64,000 nt of DNA. Origin: a virus. Its lineage: Duplodnaviria; Caudoviricetes. The stretch is taken from the IMG/VR virus record IMGVR_UViG_3300020151_001495, positions 1-64,000 of that record, one strand, 5' to 3'. Positions 39,399-47,911 of this stretch are shown in pieces. Position 1 is the first letter of the stretch. Each line of letters starts with the position of its first letter. A model generated the notes under the pieces. It was not told the DNA's origin. It did no database searches and saw only the letters and a list, made by a program, of their open reading frames with translations. A program made the position numbers and the translations under genes.

Positions 39399-40751
39399 TT
39401 AGTTTCCTAAATTAGATTGACCTGACGAAGGAACTACGTCTGGAATATTATTACCACCAAAAGAATCCCTAGTCAATGTAACAGTAGTTCTAAGTTCAGT
39501 TCTATTTAGGATAGTATGTCGTATTGAATGTACTAAATATCTACCGCTCATTCTTTCATCTTCTTCAACTGATCCATCAGTTTTTCTTTTTGGAGATGGA
39601 ATAGAAATATTAATAACATTTCCTGCACGAATATTTAAGTCCCCTGGAATACTAATTTCCAATTTATTATACTCTAAGAAATAATATCTATAGATAGATT
39701 TTTCATAAGTTTGATTTACCTGATCTATATTTTTATTTTCTGCATCATCAACTTCCTTCCATCCAAATGTAGTTAATGTAGTTGGTCTGTAAACTATTCT
39801 GGTAGGAAACTGTAAAGATTTATCTTCACTATCCATTCTAAATGGCTTCAACTTACCTAGGTGTTCCATGTCATTCCAATACTTTGAAGCATTTGTATTA
39901 AATACTTTGTATACTCTATTGTTTATATCTACATAAACTGATCGGTGACAGAAGGCTCCATTTCTCAGATCTTCAAAAATATCAAATGCTTTAGGAGAAG
40001 AATAATTTAAAATTCTATAATTGTTTTGAGTGGTTCCTTTTGCTGTAGTATTTGCTTGAACAAATGTATACTTTGTATTATTATTTGGATATGCTGGTTG
40101 ACGGAATAATGTATCTATAGACTTAAATTTATATCCCTCTATAGTTTCATAAAATAAATATCCCACTGAGTTCTTATATGCAGTAGCAACACTTCTTCTT
40201 GACATCCAAATAGCTGTATCAAACAATCTCCAATTTGGAACATACATGTTAAATGGATATAAACTTTCGTCAGCTTCGAAAGTCTTTCTGGTAAATACAG
40301 ATCCATTGGATGAAGTTGCAGTCAATTTTTGTTTTAGAAAATCATGTGATTTTATTCCATCTACTCGTTCCATTATTCTATTTGATTCATTATATAAAGC
40401 TTCGAGACTAACAAAATGCATAACATATGCTTGGTTCTTTTCTTGCATCACTCTACCATCAATTTTATATAGATAAAAATTTAATTCATATTCTTCGGTA
40501 AATGTAGATATTTCAAGTTGTACTTTTTCCTGACCCATCAAAGGTAAAGAACTAATAATATTTTCTCCAATGTCAGTAACAACTATTTGACAGTATAAAC
40601 TAGCAGAAATTACACTTTCATAAATTGATACTTCTTTAACAAGTTCTTTTATATCAATATACTTTGTATCTTTTGCCGTAGTTCCTTCAAGAACTACAGG
40701 AAATAACTTTACTGTCTTTAGAGAAAAATCTCCAGAAAATTTTGCTTGCAT
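39399..40751 (-). CDS. baseplate hub / tail protein (gp27-like)
   Basis: YES....LPL.G.E, FYET..GY.FKSID.L, IPGDL...AG..I, SGRYLV..IRH; located next to gp5. Confidence 0.65.
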   Translation of the reverse strand: MQAKFSGDFSLKTVKLFPVVLEGTTAKDTKYIDIKELVKEVSIYESVISASLYCQIVVTDIGENIISSLPLMGQEKVQLEISTFTEEYELNFYLYKIDGRVMQEKNQAYVMHFVSLEALYNESNRIMERVDGIKSHDFLKQKLTATSSNGSVFTRKTFEADESLYPFNMYVPNWRLFDTAIWMSRRSVATAYKNSVGYLFYETIEGYKFKSIDTLFRQPAYPNNNTKYTFVQANTTAKGTTQNNYRILNYSSPKAFDIFEDLRNGAFCHRSVYVDINNRVYKVFNTNASKYWNDMEHLGKLKPFRMDSEDKSLQFPTRIVYRPTTLTTFGWKEVDDAENKNIDQVNQTYEKSIYRYYFLEYNKLEISIPGDLNIRAGNVINISIPSPKRKTDGSVEEDERMSGRYLVHSIRHTILNRTELRTTVTLTRDSFGGNNIPDVVPSSGQSNLGN

Positions 40752-43717
40752 TATAGTCTACGTTGTAAGTAACTTGTTGAACTATCAAGATTTGCATATG
40801 AAGTGTACATAGTATAATCAACAGCTGGCAATGGTGATAAAAGATTTACACTATTTGCTACTGTATTAGGTGGAGCTATAATATATGTATCTGACATAAA
40901 GGCAGTAGAAGTTATATTTTGTGCTTGAATCATATCCATACTGCTTCTTTCTAGTTGAGTCCCATTTAGTTTTGGCTTTCCAGTAAGACCTCTATACAAT
41001 TTATTTAAATCTTTTGCAATCTGAGAAAATGAAACTTCTGGTGGTGTCTCCTCTTCTGGAGTTGTTGAAGGAACATCACCGCCAGTAACTGATGGTTGTT
41101 GTCCTGGAGTAGGTGGCTGAGTTCCTGTGGAAGTTATTCCTCCTTTTCTTAGCAATGAAAATAATCCATTCTGTAATGGATCAACTTTTCCATTCAAAGT
41201 TTCTTCTAATCCTTTTACTGCAGTATGTTGCTCTAAATGTAAATGAGGTCCTCCAGAACGACCAGATCCAGGAGCACCTTTTGCTCCACCAGACATTGCA
41301 ATAACTGTATTTTCATTGAACTTACCTCCAGGCTTTACCCAAGATGGAATAGAACTTAAGTGTGCAAGTCTGGCAATTTTTCTATCAACTAATTTAATAT
41401 CAATATAAGATCCATATCCACCATTAGCTTCTCGTTCAGTACTAGAAGTTTTGGAAACTTTTGTAAATTCTCCCTTTGATGCAAATGATAATGGAGTTCC
41501 TACAGGAAACCCAATATCAATACCTTCATGTTTATGTTTTCTAAATGATTCTTTATTTGCAAAGTGACTTGTAATATCTCCTCTAGAAACTGCCCCTCCA
41601 ACTTGATATCTATCTCTAAAGAAGTTTCCTCCATCTGGTCTTCTTCTATCATTTCTGGTAACTCTATATCCCATGAAATATTGAGAACCTCCAACAAATT
41701 TCTTTGCAGATTGTGATAAAGGTCCATTCTTGTCAAAGTCAGCTAATACTTGTGCTGCAACTTTAGGATTGCCAGCCTGAAATCTATTTGTTAATTGTTG
41801 AATTCCATCAGATTTTCCTGCCAAATCAAATAATTCTTTTTTAGTTAGCCCTAATCCTCCATATTTTTTTGCTGCCGCACCATCAGCACTACCACCATAT
41901 ATTGCAGCAGAATAAGGAGAAAATTGTTCTTTTGCAGTAATGACTGCAGGAATTCCTCCGCTCTGTCCAGCAGCTCTATTTAAAATAACTTGATATACAT
42001 CTGCAACATGCTGTGGTGCAGATGCTTCAAGTGTAGCAAGGTGTGCAGCAGCTCTTTTATCTGCAGATGAAGCTTTAATTGCATCTAACTCAGCAGCAGT
42101 TAAAGCTTCATTTGAGCCTCCAGGACCACCTGAACCACCACCTCCACCCCCAGGAGTAGAAGTATCTAAATTCAGTATATTATTAAATATATCTGCTAAT
42201 AATTCTCTTACACTATTTCCAGTATTATATCTAGTTTTTTTGGTAGAAGATTTAGATGAAATTAAAGTTAGTGGTTTATTACTTCCTACAATTTTTTCTA
42301 ATTGTTTATCACTAGGTTGTTTAGTTTTCTTATCAATTGAACTAGAATCTATAGATGTATTTCCTAGATTTGAAGCAAATGTAAATCTAGAAACTCCAAA
42401 TTCTTTTGTAAATGGTGCAAATAATTGTTGAGCAAATGGACGAATTATATTTCCAATAGTTCCCATGGAGAATAGAACTGCATTTACTCCTCCAATTATG
42501 GAAGACCCAAGCATTCCAAGTGGACCAGACAGTATTGCACCTGAATATAATTGACCTAAAGGTATTACTGCTTCGGGACCAGCTTCACCAATAATAGCTT
42601 TGGTTGGCTGAGTTACAATACCTCCTACTGCTAACTGTGGAACATCATCAGACTTCTTAGAAAATAGTCCCTTTACCCAGCCATATAATTTATCGGCTGC
42701 CCAATCTCCAAGCAATCCGCCCAGGGCACCACCAACTATAGTTCCTGGTCCTGGGAAAGCAGATCCTACCAATCCACCCAGTCCCATTCCAAGTGCAGAA
42801 CCTGCAGCTTTTACAATAGCTTTATCTATTGGATCGCCAAGAATTAAATTAATTCCAAGATCAAGTAATGGTCCTACAATTGGTATTCCTTTTACTGTAG
42901 TTTTGGCAACTGCTTTGATTGGACCGAGAACAATATTTCTAACTGCTTTGAATGCAGGACCAAGCAATTTAGAAAGTATTCTAACTCCTCCCTTTCCAAA
43001 TACTTTTAATAGTCCTCTTCCTAATCCTCTAGCTAATCCATGCTTAAAAATTTGAGCAGTCTTTGGCAGTGTTTGTAGGAGTGCCTCTGAACCTTCTTTT
43101 AATCCAGCTTTTCTAAAAGTGTTGAATACTTCTAATATCTTACCACCATTTTTTATAACAAAAGATAAATCTTTAAATATTTTTCCAGGGTTTAATAGAT
43201 ATCTAAATCCAAGTAAACCTACTAATAATCTAAAAAATCCTAAGAATCTTTCTAATAAATTTTCTCCAAATATAACACTATGCAATCCACTAAAAGTATT
43301 ATCTATAGTTCCAGTTACAAACCAACTAACAAAATCAAAAATTCCTTTTAATGCTTTTACTATAGATAAAACTTTTTTTGAATTCTCTGGTTTACTTATC
43401 CATTCAACTGCTTTATATGTAATAAAAAATTGTAAAAATCCAAATAAAGCTGATCCTAATCCAACTCCTTGTTTGTATAAAAATTTACCAGCGGATTTCT
43501 TGGCAGATACTTTAGAAGATTCTTGTCCAGATTCTTTTTCTGCAAATTGAGATTTTTCTGCAGATCGTTTCTCTAGTGCATATAAACGTTTTTCTAACTT
43601 ATATCTAGTTTTCTTTTCTTCATATAATTTTTTACTCAATACATTGATAGCCTTCAGTTCCTTTAGTCTGGAAGGAACAATAAATGTAGATGGTTTAATA
43701 GGAGAAGAAATTGCCAT
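40751..43717 (-). CDS. tape-measure/hub-associated protein with cell-wall hydrolase (SleB-like) and M23 peptidase domains
   Basis: A.GGIV..PT.A.IGEAGPEAVIPL; LEA..VYQVILNR..VITAKEQF; HEGIDIG, AHLS, GPHLHLE. Confidence 0.7.
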   Translation of the reverse strand: MAISSPIKPSTFIVPSRLKELKAINVLSKKLYEEKKTRYKLEKRLYALEKRSAEKSQFAEKESGQESSKVSAKKSAGKFLYKQGVGLGSALFGFLQFFITYKAVEWISKPENSKKVLSIVKALKGIFDFVSWFVTGTIDNTFSGLHSVIFGENLLERFLGFFRLLVGLLGFRYLLNPGKIFKDLSFVIKNGGKILEVFNTFRKAGLKEGSEALLQTLPKTAQIFKHGLARGLGRGLLKVFGKGGVRILSKLLGPAFKAVRNIVLGPIKAVAKTTVKGIPIVGPLLDLGINLILGDPIDKAIVKAAGSALGMGLGGLVGSAFPGPGTIVGGALGGLLGDWAADKLYGWVKGLFSKKSDDVPQLAVGGIVTQPTKAIIGEAGPEAVIPLGQLYSGAILSGPLGMLGSSIIGGVNAVLFSMGTIGNIIRPFAQQLFAPFTKEFGVSRFTFASNLGNTSIDSSSIDKKTKQPSDKQLEKIVGSNKPLTLISSKSSTKKTRYNTGNSVRELLADIFNNILNLDTSTPGGGGGGSGGPGGSNEALTAAELDAIKASSADKRAAAHLATLEASAPQHVADVYQVILNRAAGQSGGIPAVITAKEQFSPYSAAIYGGSADGAAAKKYGGLGLTKKELFDLAGKSDGIQQLTNRFQAGNPKVAAQVLADFDKNGPLSQSAKKFVGGSQYFMGYRVTRNDRRRPDGGNFFRDRYQVGGAVSRGDITSHFANKESFRKHKHEGIDIGFPVGTPLSFASKGEFTKVSKTSSTEREANGGYGSYIDIKLVDRKIARLAHLSSIPSWVKPGGKFNENTVIAMSGGAKGAPGSGRSGGPHLHLEQHTAVKGLEETLNGKVDPLQNGLFSLLRKGGITSTGTQPPTPGQQPSVTGGDVPSTTPEEETPPEVSFSQIAKDLNKLYRGLTGKPKLNGTQLERSSMDMIQAQNITSTAFMSDTYIIAPPNTVANSVNLLSPLPAVDYTMYTSYANLDSSTSYLQRRL

Positions 43718-43718
43718 C

Positions 43719-46700
43719 TTATACAGTTACTGGAAAAAGTGTTAGTGGAACAGGGGCAACAGTATTACCAAGTGTAGGAGCTAATGATTGAGTTGTAGAT
43801 TGATTAACTACGTTAGTTCCTTGACCAAGAGAAACTATATTGCCTCCAGGGGTTGACATAGAAGCTCTCTGAGTTGCCCTATAATTATTTGAATCAGTTT
43901 GTGCTTGTTGTAATCTAGAAGATGATGCTGGAACTGATGGTCTAGTGGCAGCTGGAGGAGGTAGTGGTGTAGCAGATGGTACTGCTTGAGTAGGAGTTCC
44001 TGTTAATCCTTTATACAATTTATTTAAATCTTTTGCAATCTGAGAAAATGAAACTGGTGGTGGTGCTGATTCTCCTGATGGTGTAGTTCCATCATCTCCT
44101 GAAGTTGAACCATCATATGGAATTTGCTTTCCTCCTGGGGTTAGTGCAAAAATATTTTGAGAAGCAGATCCATACACTGCTGCAACACCATCATGTCCAC
44201 CACGTTGCCAATGACCACTCCATAATTTCCTTCCTCCCTGTTTAGCAATTGCAGCATCATGTCCACTAGATTGATTCTTTTTCCAATCTGAAAATTCTGT
44301 AGTAAATATAATGGATCCGCTTGGAATTTTATTCGATTTTACTGCAGTCGCCCATTCAGAAACTGTCATCGCATTTACAGCTGCATTTCCATATGCACTT
44401 TGAAGATTAATTCGTTTACTTCCCAATCCAGAAATAGGTCCCCACCCATAACTCTTCATTAATTGAACTGCAAGCCCTCTAGGATTATTAGGATCATTTC
44501 CAGTTCCTGGTGGATTAGGAACATCATTTGCAGCCATTGTATCAAGAACTCCAGTGACACAATAACCTGGATCTGCATTAGCTAATTTTGTTCCATCCTT
44601 TAATTTATCTAAAACAGATCCACCAGTTTGGAATCTTGGAAACATTCCAAAATTTATTCTATCCAATATTCCAGAGCCACCCATTCCACGAACTGCATTT
44701 CTGTTTAAAACATATTCTTGTGGTTCTAATAGTGCAGGTACTTTATCTCCACCCCCAAATCCTCTAATCTTTCCTCCACGATTAAATTTTGCAGGTCTTC
44801 CATAAACTCCTTCAGTAGGAGCTTCCCAAACATCTGAACCCGATAATCCTTTAGGTCCTTTATTAGCTCTAGATTTTAATATTTTACCCATCTGATAATT
44901 ATACATTCCTTCGGCAGTTTGATCTCCACCAAACAATCCTTGTAGAATTTTAACTTCTCCTGTGCTAGGAATTCTTACTAATGGACCTCCTAAAGTTTTA
45001 GAATCAAATAATCTAGTAGATGTAATATCAGTTAAAGGATCTCCAGGCTTTTCCCATCGGAATACATTTCCTGTAGCATCATACCAATATTTTCTATTTC
45101 CATTAATTACAGGCTTTAATCCACCGCCAGGAGAATATTCTTTTCCTGATCTACCCATATCTCTAACAGTTCCTTTGACTCCCTTCAGGGTTCCGTCTTC
45201 TCGCAATCCGCCCGCTTTTTTTATGGATTCTTTTGCACTGTCTGCTACGGTCGCTGCCCCTGCGCCAGGAGGAGGACTTCCACCTGCAGGAGCGGCAGGG
45301 GTTTCGGGAGAAGATGGCCCAGGAGATGGGGGGGTTGTTGGAGTAGTTGACTCTGAGTTCTTACTAGATAATACTCCTAAAATATTTGCAAGTAAACCTC
45401 TTACTGAAGTATCTCTAGATGGTGTAAATTTATTTCCTTGTTGTTTTGTAACTTTGGGATCCTTGTCTCCAAATAATTTAGATATATTTCCAGCTCCTTC
45501 AGATAATGCTTTTGCAGGATTCTTTACAAACTTAGAAACTCCTTTTACTATAGAAGTTGGTATTCCAAATGTAGATGCAATGCTACCAATTAATGGCATC
45601 ATCAATGGTCCAATACCAGGAATCATTGATAATGAAGATGTCATCAATGCTATAATTCCAGCACCAACTAAGGTGAATGGAATTGTCAATAGCTTCATAA
45701 ATTTTGGAATAATTTTTCCAATATCAGATTCAATACCTTTTCCTGCAAATGATGAAAGTTTATCTAATGGAAGTATTGCTTCAGGTCCAGCCTCTCCAAC
45801 AATAGCTTTAGTTGGCTTTGTTACAATGCCCCCCTTTGCTAATTTTGGAAGTTTTTCATTTTCTTTATCTTTCTCTTTTGCTATATCTCTGGCAACTAGT
45901 GCGGCATCAATTCCAATAGAAGCTGCGGTTCCCCATCCAGGTAATAATGAAGCTGCACCAGATGCAACTTCCATCCCTGCTCCGAGCCAATCTCCTTTGG
46001 ATGCTCTATCTACAGCAAAAACTCCACCAGCAACTGCACCAATAACTGGAAGTTTTTTCAGTAAAGATTTCCCTGCTCCTTTAGCTGCTCCTTTAGCTGC
46101 TGCTTGACCAGCACCCTTTGCAGCCGCACCAGCACCCTTTGCAGCCGCACCAGCACCCTTGGCAGCCGCATCAGCTCCCTTTGCAGCCGCACCAGCACCC
46201 TTTGTTGCTGCGCCAGCTCCTTCTTTTGCTGCCTGCTTACCTGCTTCAGTAGCTCCTTTTATACCTTCATTGATTGCAGTGTCTGCCGCCTGAGTAGCTA
46301 CACTTGGTATTAAATTAGTAAAGAAATTTAATATCCCATTTATAGTATTTGGAATTACCTTAGTAAATATATTTCCAATAAATTTAATATCGGAAATTAT
46401 TTTAGTAGGATTTAATAACCATTTAAGGGTAAAAAATCCAACAATCATTTCAAGAGCACCAAAGACTCTTGTTATTCCACCACCATCTACTAAGTGACTC
46501 AAGCCACTCATCAATTTGTCTATACCAAATCCTACAACATTACTAATAAATCCAAATATACCTAAAAATAATTTGGCAAAGTCTTTAACTTTTTTAGTAT
46601 TTTCTGGCTTACTTACCCATTCAACAATTTTATATCCAATAAACCATTTAAATAAATTACCAAAAAAATCAAAAAGTCCTCCCAGACCTTTCATTGCACC

Positions 46701-47015
46701 TTTGACAATAGGATTTTCTTTTTCTTTTTTATCCTTGTTGCCTTTGGTTTCTTGAGATGTTTCTTTCTTTTTTAATTTTGATTTTTCTTCAGTCCTAGCA
46801 AACCTAAGAATTTTATCCCCAAGAAGATCAGTATATTTTTTTTCAATTGCAAGTAGTGAATTTAAATTCTTCTTAATTGAAGACAACTCTGCTACTTCAA
46901 CAGCAGAAAATGCTCCTGGAGAACTCATTCCAGGAGAAGTAAATGCTGATTGATTAATTTTCTGACCAAGTAATGACTGGCCAAATGATCTCATTGTCGG
47001 TTTAGGTTGTGCCAT
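43719..47015 (-). CDS. tape-measure-like protein with a CHAP/NlpC-like domain
   Basis: Paralogous N-terminus, GEAGPEAILPL, GDKVPALLEP.EYVLN, GYCVTGV...GSIIF...GHDAAI. Confidence 0.65.
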   Translation of the reverse strand: MAQPKPTMRSFGQSLLGQKINQSAFTSPGMSSPGAFSAVEVAELSSIKKNLNSLLAIEKKYTDLLGDKILRFARTEEKSKLKKKETSQETKGNKDKKEKENPIVKGAMKGLGGLFDFFGNLFKWFIGYKIVEWVSKPENTKKVKDFAKLFLGIFGFISNVVGFGIDKLMSGLSHLVDGGGITRVFGALEMIVGFFTLKWLLNPTKIISDIKFIGNIFTKVIPNTINGILNFFTNLIPSVATQAADTAINEGIKGATEAGKQAAKEGAGAATKGAGAAAKGADAAAKGAGAAAKGAGAAAKGAGQAAAKGAAKGAGKSLLKKLPVIGAVAGGVFAVDRASKGDWLGAGMEVASGAASLLPGWGTAASIGIDAALVARDIAKEKDKENEKLPKLAKGGIVTKPTKAIVGEAGPEAILPLDKLSSFAGKGIESDIGKIIPKFMKLLTIPFTLVGAGIIALMTSSLSMIPGIGPLMMPLIGSIASTFGIPTSIVKGVSKFVKNPAKALSEGAGNISKLFGDKDPKVTKQQGNKFTPSRDTSVRGLLANILGVLSSKNSESTTPTTPPSPGPSSPETPAAPAGGSPPPGAGAATVADSAKESIKKAGGLREDGTLKGVKGTVRDMGRSGKEYSPGGGLKPVINGNRKYWYDATGNVFRWEKPGDPLTDITSTRLFDSKTLGGPLVRIPSTGEVKILQGLFGGDQTAEGMYNYQMGKILKSRANKGPKGLSGSDVWEAPTEGVYGRPAKFNRGGKIRGFGGGDKVPALLEPQEYVLNRNAVRGMGGSGILDRINFGMFPRFQTGGSVLDKLKDGTKLANADPGYCVTGVLDTMAANDVPNPPGTGNDPNNPRGLAVQLMKSYGWGPISGLGSKRINLQSAYGNAAVNAMTVSEWATAVKSNKIPSGSIIFTTEFSDWKKNQSSGHDAAIAKQGGRKLWSGHWQRGGHDGVAAVYGSASQNIFALTPGGKQIPYDGSTSGDDGTTPSGESAPPPVSFSQIAKDLNKLYKGLTGTPTQAVPSATPLPPPAATRPSVPASSSRLQQAQTDSNNYRATQRASMSTPGGNIVSLGQGTNVVNQSTTQSLAPTLGNTVAPVPLTLFPVTV
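46108..46221. repeat. 21-bp tandem repeat (~5 units) encoding (AAKGAGA)n
   Basis: ccagcaccctttgcagccgca units. Confidence 0.9.
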
Positions 47016-47018
47016 TTA

Positions 47019-47213
47019 TTATAATGACTGCGTTGTTTTATTTTTATTATTTTCTTCCTCAACATAATCAATTAACATTTGCACATAAACCTCTCTTTCC
47101 CACGGAATCATCATTTCTAACTCACTTAAATTCCACTTATGATGTTGTATCAATATGAAATTTATTCGATAGAAGTTTTCAAGGGTTTCGTGAGCTAGAG
47201 CTAGGCGAAAAAA
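47019..47213 (-). CDS. gp51: gp51-like baseplate hub assembly protein; startless frame probably entered by -1 frameshift from gp26
   Basis: Manual translation FFRLALAHETLENFYRINFILIQHHKWNLSELEMMIPWEREVYVQMLIDYVEEEN...; matches the cyanophage gp51 pattern NF.L.QHHK..L.E.E.MIPWER. Confidence 0.8.
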   Translation of the reverse strand, partial: FFRLALAHETLENFYRINFILIQHHKWNLSELEMMIPWEREVYVQMLIDYVEEENNKNKTTQSL

Positions 47214-47911
47214 CTTGCTAGACCTTCAATAACAACATCACTAGTAACATTTGTATTTGGATTTGTTACCGTTATTGTATGAGACAATTTAGGCATAGAC
47301 TCAAAGAACTGTTGTAGTTTGAGAAACTGTGATGTATCCATACTGTCCATAAAATCAGAAATTTCTTTTTTAGAGAAACTCTTAACTTCATATACTTCTT
47401 CATTATCAATAACTTGATCTATACAGGAAGAAGCAATATCAAAAACATCTTCTGCATTTGCATTAGAAGAAAGATTTGTTTTCACAAAAGTTTCCATGCT
47501 AGGATATTTCATTACAATAGATACAGTATCATTCAGTTGAATTATTCTATTGTGAGAATCAGATTTCTGAACTTTAATGTCCTCAACATTAATTTTAACA
47601 GGAACTGTTGTTTCATCATCATCTGGACAAGTAAGGTTCAGTTCGATTTCTTCTCCAACAGACTTAGCACGAATATTTAAAAACAAATATTCAATATCAA
47701 AGGTAGCTAAATCATCAATTTTTATCTTAGACAAAATGCAATTTTTTAAAATTGTTTTAACTGCATTTGTCATCTGTTTTTCATCTTCAGATTCCATAGC
47801 TAATAGAAGAATTTTTTCTTCCTTTACTAGAAATGGTCTGTATTTAATTGTTTCTTCAGTTGATGGAAGTGCCAACTCATATGTTGGGGCAACTAATTTT
47901 GGTAAAGGCAT
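47201..47911 (-). CDS. gp26: baseplate hub subunit gp26
   Basis: MPLPKL..PTYEL.LPS....KYRPFLVKEEKILL..FDIEYLFL.IRAKSVGE..EGL.SFF. Confidence 0.9.
   Translation of the reverse strand: MPLPKLVAPTYELALPSTEETIKYRPFLVKEEKILLLAMESEDEKQMTNAVKTILKNCILSKIKIDDLATFDIEYLFLNIRAKSVGEEIELNLTCPDDDETTVPVKINVEDIKVQKSDSHNRIIQLNDTVSIVMKYPSMETFVKTNLSSNANAEDVFDIASSCIDQVIDNEEVYEVKSFSKKEISDFMDSMDTSQFLKLQQFFESMPKLSHTITVTNPNTNVTSDVVIEGLASFFA

Follow-up and report, generated by a model that had tools for sequence, protein, structure and literature searches.

A single gene related to T4 gene 26 very probably yields both a short and a long tail assembly chaperone by -1 ribosomal slippage on a conserved U_UUU_UUC heptamer, a reading to which we assign a probability of roughly 0.85. 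The gene lies in the window, which is the whole 64,000-nt stretch of cyanophage DNA analysed here (positions 1 to 64,000 of the IMG/VR record IMGVR_UViG_3300020151_001495). A frameshift of the lambda G/GT type is supported by the conservation of the slip site and of the coding sequence behind it, missing start codons, collinearity with T4 gp51, the presence of only one PF12322 gene, gene order and the predicted fold. The analysis shows that the signal exists and is conserved, that the -1 frame is under coding constraint, that the fusion and T4 gp51 are homologous and that the fold is chaperone-like. As the sequence-only reading of this DNA had proposed for T4-like phages, conservation, T4 gp51 collinearity, synteny and the fold of the N-domain support the view that the chaperone pair is the counterpart of lambda G/GT; it likewise corresponds to T4 gp26 plus gp51.

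The short form (TAC-N) is gp26, a 236-aa protein encoded on the minus strand at 47911-47201 and closed in the zero frame by a TAG at 47203-47201. It matches PF12322 (T4_baseplate) as a full-length domain (profile positions 2-219 of 219, E 1.5e-74) as well as the baseplate hub family phrog_150 (E 1.3e-81), and no other PF12322 match occurs in the 116-kb record that contains the window, a 63%-complete fragment. The 3' end of the gene reads AGT TTT TTC GCC TAG and includes the heptamer T_TTT_TTC (47213-47207, minus strand) in the X_XXY_YYZ register, with AGT TTT TTC as the zero-frame codons. A -1 frame extension, which is called gp51 in other annotations, occupies 47213-47019 of the same strand and comprises 64 codons and a TAA (47021-47019). 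Upstream of the T run, this frame has four open codons preceded by a TGA, while its first TTG and its first ATG are found at codons 21 and 34, respectively. Joining gp26 to the -1 ORF at the heptamer gives a long form (TAC-NC) of 297 aa with a predicted mass of ~34 kDa (vs ~27 kDa for gp26), whose predicted tryptic peptides include ...GLASFFR at the junction, followed by LALAHETLENFYR. Direct reading of the sequence confirmed all of the details that had been reported before, namely the gp26 end, the heptamer, the 64-codon -1 frame, the upstream TGA, the TTG and ATG positions and the 297-aa product.

According to the proposed mechanism, most ribosomes would terminate gp26 at the TAG and release the 236-aa short chaperone, and a minority would slip back by one base while two Phe-tRNAs are bound to UUU UUC of U_UUU_UUC. 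Both tRNAs would then re-pair with UUU UUU, and the slipped ribosomes would read 62 further codons in the -1 frame, producing the 297-aa long form in which gp26 is fused to gp51. The role of the pair is presumably to act as a chaperone of the tape measure while tail and hub are being assembled; by analogy with lambda G/GT, the short domain would bind the tape measure, and the extension would bind the tube protein. We infer the ribosomal nature of the slippage, its efficiency and the binding partners of the two products.

Gene order agrees with such a role, the chaperone pair being located between a tail-tube-like gene and a tape-measure-like gene. Upstream of gp26, also on the minus strand, are a tail-tube-like gene of 272 aa (48773-47955), which matches PF23849 (Phage_TTP_2, E 6.8e-13) and the tail tube family phrog_45 (E 4e-29), and, upstream of that, a gp2-like DNA end protector gene (49396-48770). 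On the other side, the -1 ORF stop is followed by TAA ATG, as previously noted, and this ATG, 3 nt past the stop, opens a tape-measure-like or wall-hydrolase gene of 1098 aa (47015-43719, minus strand) that matches the tape-measure families phrog_10093, 934 and 5448 with E values of 5e-6 to 6e-4. The same order of tube, chaperone and tape measure genes is present in KVP40, phiM7, OLIVR5 and RL2RES. In the window region 40751-47015, which includes the 1098-aa gene, the matches of this gene to tape-measure PHROGs are weak and those to large endolysin/peptidase-type families are stronger.

The heptamer alone is not beyond chance and is common in this AT-rich DNA; its mere presence was rejected as significant considering that the window contains 23 copies of TTTTTTC vs 31.7 expected from shuffles, and the decisive evidence is its conservation. 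We compared 85 loci, including the window, 80 gp26 relatives from IMG/VR (53-77% identity) and four named cyanophages (P-SSM2, S-SM2, S-SKS1 and ACG-2014d). T_TTT_TTC was found in the same register in 84 of the 85 loci and is invariant in all 77 non-identical junctions (these loci are related, and the counts are not independent events), showing that both the T6 heptamer and the -1 register first noticed in one genome are conserved features. The five bases in front of it are among the most variable columns of the alignment. In the loci that carry the site, the zero-frame stop lies one codon past the heptamer (right after TTC in locus L010), and across loci the -1 ORF behind the slip site has 61-66 codons. 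Codon usage at the site is equally constrained: the codon before the heptamer may be AGT, TCT, AAT, GCT, GGT or GAT, thereby specifying five amino acids, but its third base is always T, and the second Phe codon is TTC in 77/77 junctions vs 24% TTC elsewhere in gp26.

Coding constraint crosses from one frame to the other at this point. Over the 77 junctions, conservation is lowest at the third position of zero-frame codons ahead of the site and at the third position of -1-frame codons behind it, and this shift in wobble periodicity provides a -1 coding signal of the kind for which the sequence-only reading had suggested looking. Conservation of the -1 peptide sets in directly behind the two Phe residues, with the pattern FF-[RQL]-[ILV]-x-[ML]-x-H..L..Y..NF. 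Codon 5 of the -1 frame is an ATG in 57 of the 77 junctions, 2-3 nt past the gp26 stop, and serves as the gp51 start of annotators; in the other 20 it is CTA, CTG, TTG, CTT or TTA. No ATG, GTG or TTG occurs within the first ten -1 codons of 17 of the 77 junctions, including that of the window.

Similar arrangements were detected in more distant phages. A tblastn search with the -1 ORF of the window returned 557 phage records, with alignments that mostly begin at residue 1 and overlap the end of gp26. The slip site GAT TTT TTC and a -1 continuation are present in KVP40, ACP17, OLIVR5 and Paraglaciecola GD1, and the corresponding sites of phiM7 (AAT TTT TTT, a run of seven) and RL2RES (GAT TTT TTG) continue in the -1 frame as well. 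We also searched for homologues with a natural in-frame fusion (P0002, from locus L062) as the query and obtained 5198 of them; among the best 150 of these, which are cluster representatives, nearly all full-length proteins end at query positions 237-239, that is, at the slip site, and the sole protein spanning the junction is a fragment (P0010). This 192-aa database fragment is in frame across the junction with a locally divergent stretch (...CFFQSRYGSH...), which points to indels that compensate each other, or to faulty assembly, close to the slip site. The query itself, a 297-aa gp26-gp51 fusion, comes from a 236-kb contig (IMGVR_UViG_3300049043_000112), where the run (L062 3190-3240) reads TCT TTT TGG vs TCT TTT TTC GGT in a near relative (L056), a loss of 2 nt; this phage would make the long form only, or the contig could equally carry a homopolymer assembly error.

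Comparison with T4 connects the predicted fusion to a protein that is encoded directly. Going by its domain and tail matches, T4 gp51 (249 aa) is collinear with the fusion, as PF12322 covers its residues 1-201 (E 3.9e-52) and its residues 200-244 align with the -1 ORF of the window from residue 2 of the latter (E 5e-6), so that its PF12322 domain leads into a C-terminal tail with homology to the -1 ORF. The -1 ORF also matches phrog_634 (E 9e-26), and profile positions 231-276 of the gp26 family phrog_150 match it with an E value of 3e-6. In the window, a gp51-type tail behind the PF12322 domain is present only if the -1 slip is read through. T4 gp26 (208 aa; PF12322, E 8.8e-64) and the gp26 of the window are members of the same family, and T4 gp51 has the domain order of the fusion; however, the short and long forms of T4 are encoded by two divergently transcribed paralogous genes, whereas a single gene with a slip site is present in the window. 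Both T4 proteins act in baseplate hub assembly. One PF12322 gene is found in each of the complete genomes of P-SSM2, S-SM2, ACG-2014d and KVP40, and two in that of T4, and encoding by two separate genes in the manner of T4 was found neither in the record of the window nor in those four genomes. At the 3' end of T4 gene 26 (L085 7803-7850), the peptide end ...GLKEFF is kept, with its two Phe residues encoded by TTC TTT and no T run, implying that the nucleotide constraint exists only where the long form depends on the slip site. According to Sullivan et al. (2010, PMC3037559), gp51 of cyanophages and vibriophages is missing the N-terminal ~200 residues of its T4 counterpart, and the frameshift explains why the cyanophage protein described in that study has only about a fifth of the T4 gp51 length.

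Structural prediction was performed on the natural fusion P0002 with AlphaFold2 and a 117-row alignment. The model (pLDDT 87) contains a confident α/β N-domain (residues 1-233), a disordered junction (235-246) and a helical tail (246-296). Foldseek comparison of this model with the PDB revealed nothing at E <= 0.001 (best 0.16), and searching PDB sequences with a profile yielded nothing above noise. In a Foldseek-independent search of 48,161 chains, the top three matches are all phage tail assembly chaperones, namely HK97 2ob9 (Z 7.7, rmsd 3.6, 85 aligned residues), 3fgx (Z 7.6) and YqbN 3klu (Z 7.2), all with modest Z scores below 8 and over residues 1-91 of the model only, and the fourth-ranked chain has a Z of 4.7. 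The N-terminal ~90 residues therefore share a predicted fold with these HK97 and YqbN proteins, and the occupation of the top three ranks by chaperones is unlikely to be an accident.

Additional elements flank the heptamer in most relatives. With the 77 junctions taken together, RNAalifold found no consensus structure, and a hairpin emerged only after the junctions had been split into ATG and non-ATG types: in the 57 ATG-type junctions, a 10-bp stem begins 6 nt past the heptamer, positions +13 to +22 pairing with +32 to +41, and its 5' arm holds the annotated gp51 ATG (P-SSM2 locus L001 2219-2250; columns 26-54 of alignment A1). One of its pairs covaries between UA, AU and GC (28, 15 and 15 sequences) and joins the third base of an Ala codon to the second base of a codon for Glu, Ala or Val, where RNA pairing determines which amino acid is used. 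The covariation score was reached by none of 500 shuffles; 75% of the cells are paired vs 23-44% when the 3' partners are slid, and the 35-nt hairpin stretch has a mean MFE of -12.7 kcal/mol vs -3.3 in control windows inside gp26. No shared structure was found in the group of ATG-less junctions. The window, too, has no local hairpin at the site (MFE -0.5 vs the mean of -12.7 in relatives); a weak long-range stem that begins 7 nt past the heptamer (47199-47190 with 47125-47116, minus strand) is predicted there with an MFE of -20.7 kcal/mol (z -1.85), but 11 of 200 shuffles fold equally well and the stem is not conserved. When 46800-47400 was scanned against Rfam, the only matches were snoRNA noise below the threshold. 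Upstream of the heptamer, codon choice is biased toward GAG GGG/GGA: Glu is spelled GAG in 68/77 junctions (88%), compared with 31% in the rest of gp26, and Gly is spelled GGG in 26% of junctions, compared with 6% in the rest of the gene. In most relatives, GAG GGN thus creates a Shine-Dalgarno (SD)-like GAGGG with a 9-10 nt spacer to the heptamer, whereas the window has the weaker GAA GGT, that is, a GAAGG at 47227-47223 (minus strand) with the same spacing.

Two known systems help to interpret these elements. The -1 frameshift of E. coli dnaX uses an upstream SD-like element, a heptamer and a downstream hairpin, and its shifted product is the shorter one. Most cyanophage relatives resemble it in layout (GAGGG, a 9-10 nt spacer, the heptamer, a 6-nt spacer and a 10-bp hairpin), and by this likeness the SD-like element may be functional; however, the gene and the heptamer differ from those of dnaX, and the window lacks one of the three elements, the hairpin, and has another, the SD-like one, in weak form. 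Lambda G/GT slips by -1 on the X_XXY_YYZ heptamer G_GGA_AAG and needs no downstream structure, and a conserved -1 frameshift of tail assembly genes, including lambda G/GT, was reportedly described by Xu, Hendrix and Duda in 2004. The window and lambda are alike in their nested products, in a slip near the end of the short ORF, in placement between tube and tape measure genes and in having no evident downstream structure, but they share no sequence similarity, the likeness being limited to the N-terminal fold of the HK97 and YqbN chaperones. The short form of the window is also larger than that of lambda (236 aa, with an extra α/β part), and its heptamer is U_UUU_UUC rather than G_GGA_AAG. As the local hairpin is absent from the window and its SD-like element is weak, a low frameshift efficiency is expected, and because lambda G/GT does not need a downstream structure, the rate should be low and lambda-like rather than zero.

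On this basis, we tentatively suggest that cyanomyoviruses might tune the ratio of short to long form through a three-part signal consisting of the SD-like GAGGG, U_UUU_UUC and the covarying hairpin, that no free gp51 would exist, and that the lineage of the window might have lost both the hairpin and the ATG and run on the bare heptamer; this proposal is plausible but open to real doubt. If it is true, the free-standing gp51 in hundreds of GenBank records is nonexistent, and the window lineage, having lost the hairpin together with the ATG, should shift frame at a measurably lower rate.

Other explanations of the junction were considered. In the case of transcriptional slippage, the polymerase would add a U on the T6 run and the resulting U7 mRNAs would encode the same 297-aa fusion; the protein product being identical, sequence alone cannot separate this mechanism from a ribosomal one, and the signal is indeed a homopolymer run, which in phiM7 has seven T. 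For a polymerase to slip efficiently, however, a run of about 8-9 bases is usually required, and in 84 loci the run is exactly six, never longer, is held in the X_XXY_YYZ register and is followed by an invariant C; a spaced covarying hairpin and an SD-like element would moreover be directed at the ribosome and pointless for a polymerase. As to the literature, the title of Vladimirov et al. (2022) may be read in favour of this rival, but the alternative mechanism given in the summary in PMC10885494 is the use of two separate genes. In view of the six-base run, its fixed register and the ribosome-directed flanking elements, transcriptional slippage is considered unlikely.

Somewhat less probable again is the absence of any fusion, with gp51 being a separate small protein made from an independent start (in the window, the TTG of codon 21 or the ATG of codon 34) or by termination-reinitiation after gp26. 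All GenBank records examined, one from 2025 included, annotate gp26 and a small gp51 as two genes in this way, the ATG in 57 of the 77 junctions is suitably placed just past the gp26 stop, so that a free small gp51 may exist in those relatives, and a hairpin masking that ATG could enforce translational coupling. Nevertheless, the 20 ATG-less junctions keep the -1 frame open with residues conserved from the heptamer on, and in the window a start at the TTG of codon 21 would lose the conserved H..LEN.Y..NF segment, which upholds the earlier claim that the full gp51-like sequence is best reached by slippage. An independent gp51 also leaves the invariant heptamer and the preceding wobble T unexplained, a stop blocks the -1 frame within 0-19 codons ahead of the site in the 77 junctions, and in T4 gp51 the tail works as a C-terminal extension of the PF12322 domain. 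Least probable by far, and in our opinion close to negligible, is an artefact in which one 297-aa gene has been split, either through missequencing of the homopolymer or through a frameshift mutation of recent date; the L062 contig and the fragment P0010 do read through in frame, but the split is found in 84/85 independent assemblies or isolates and in nearly all of the best 150 cluster representatives, and the position of the stop after the heptamer is itself conserved. Sequencing error was rejected on the grounds that the split is conserved in 84/85 loci. Ribosomal slippage from one gene thus remains the preferred reading.

A direct literature search found nothing relevant on frameshifting in gp26/gp51 or in cyanophage baseplate-hub genes. 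Genes of the gp26/gp51 family were, however, identified as T4-like chaperones by Vladimirov, Gautam and Davidson (Virology 2022; 566:9-15, PMID 34826709), as cited in PMC10885494 and PMC12846349. The same study is cited for poly-T -1 signals with which the TAC-N genes of T4-like phages end (PMC12846349) and for some T4-like phages that do without a frameshift and have separate genes for a short and a long, fused form (PMC10885494). To judge from these citations, the identification as a T4-like chaperone frameshift appears to have been published in 2022, with the window representing one further genome, and the statement in the sequence-only reading that such a frameshift was not known to have been described in T4-like phages is probably wrong. 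The value as a discovery seems small for this reason. T4-like phages would nonetheless fit the pattern, almost universal among long-tailed phages, of producing the chaperone of the tape measure as two nested proteins, and there is value for annotation, as records of cyanophages, vibriophages and rhizobiophages should carry a joined CDS with ribosomal slippage. At present, public records list gp26 and a small gp51 separately and sometimes have gp51 truncated or missing; for example, gp51 is without annotation in ACG-2014d, and a truncated gp51 is annotated in S-RIM8.
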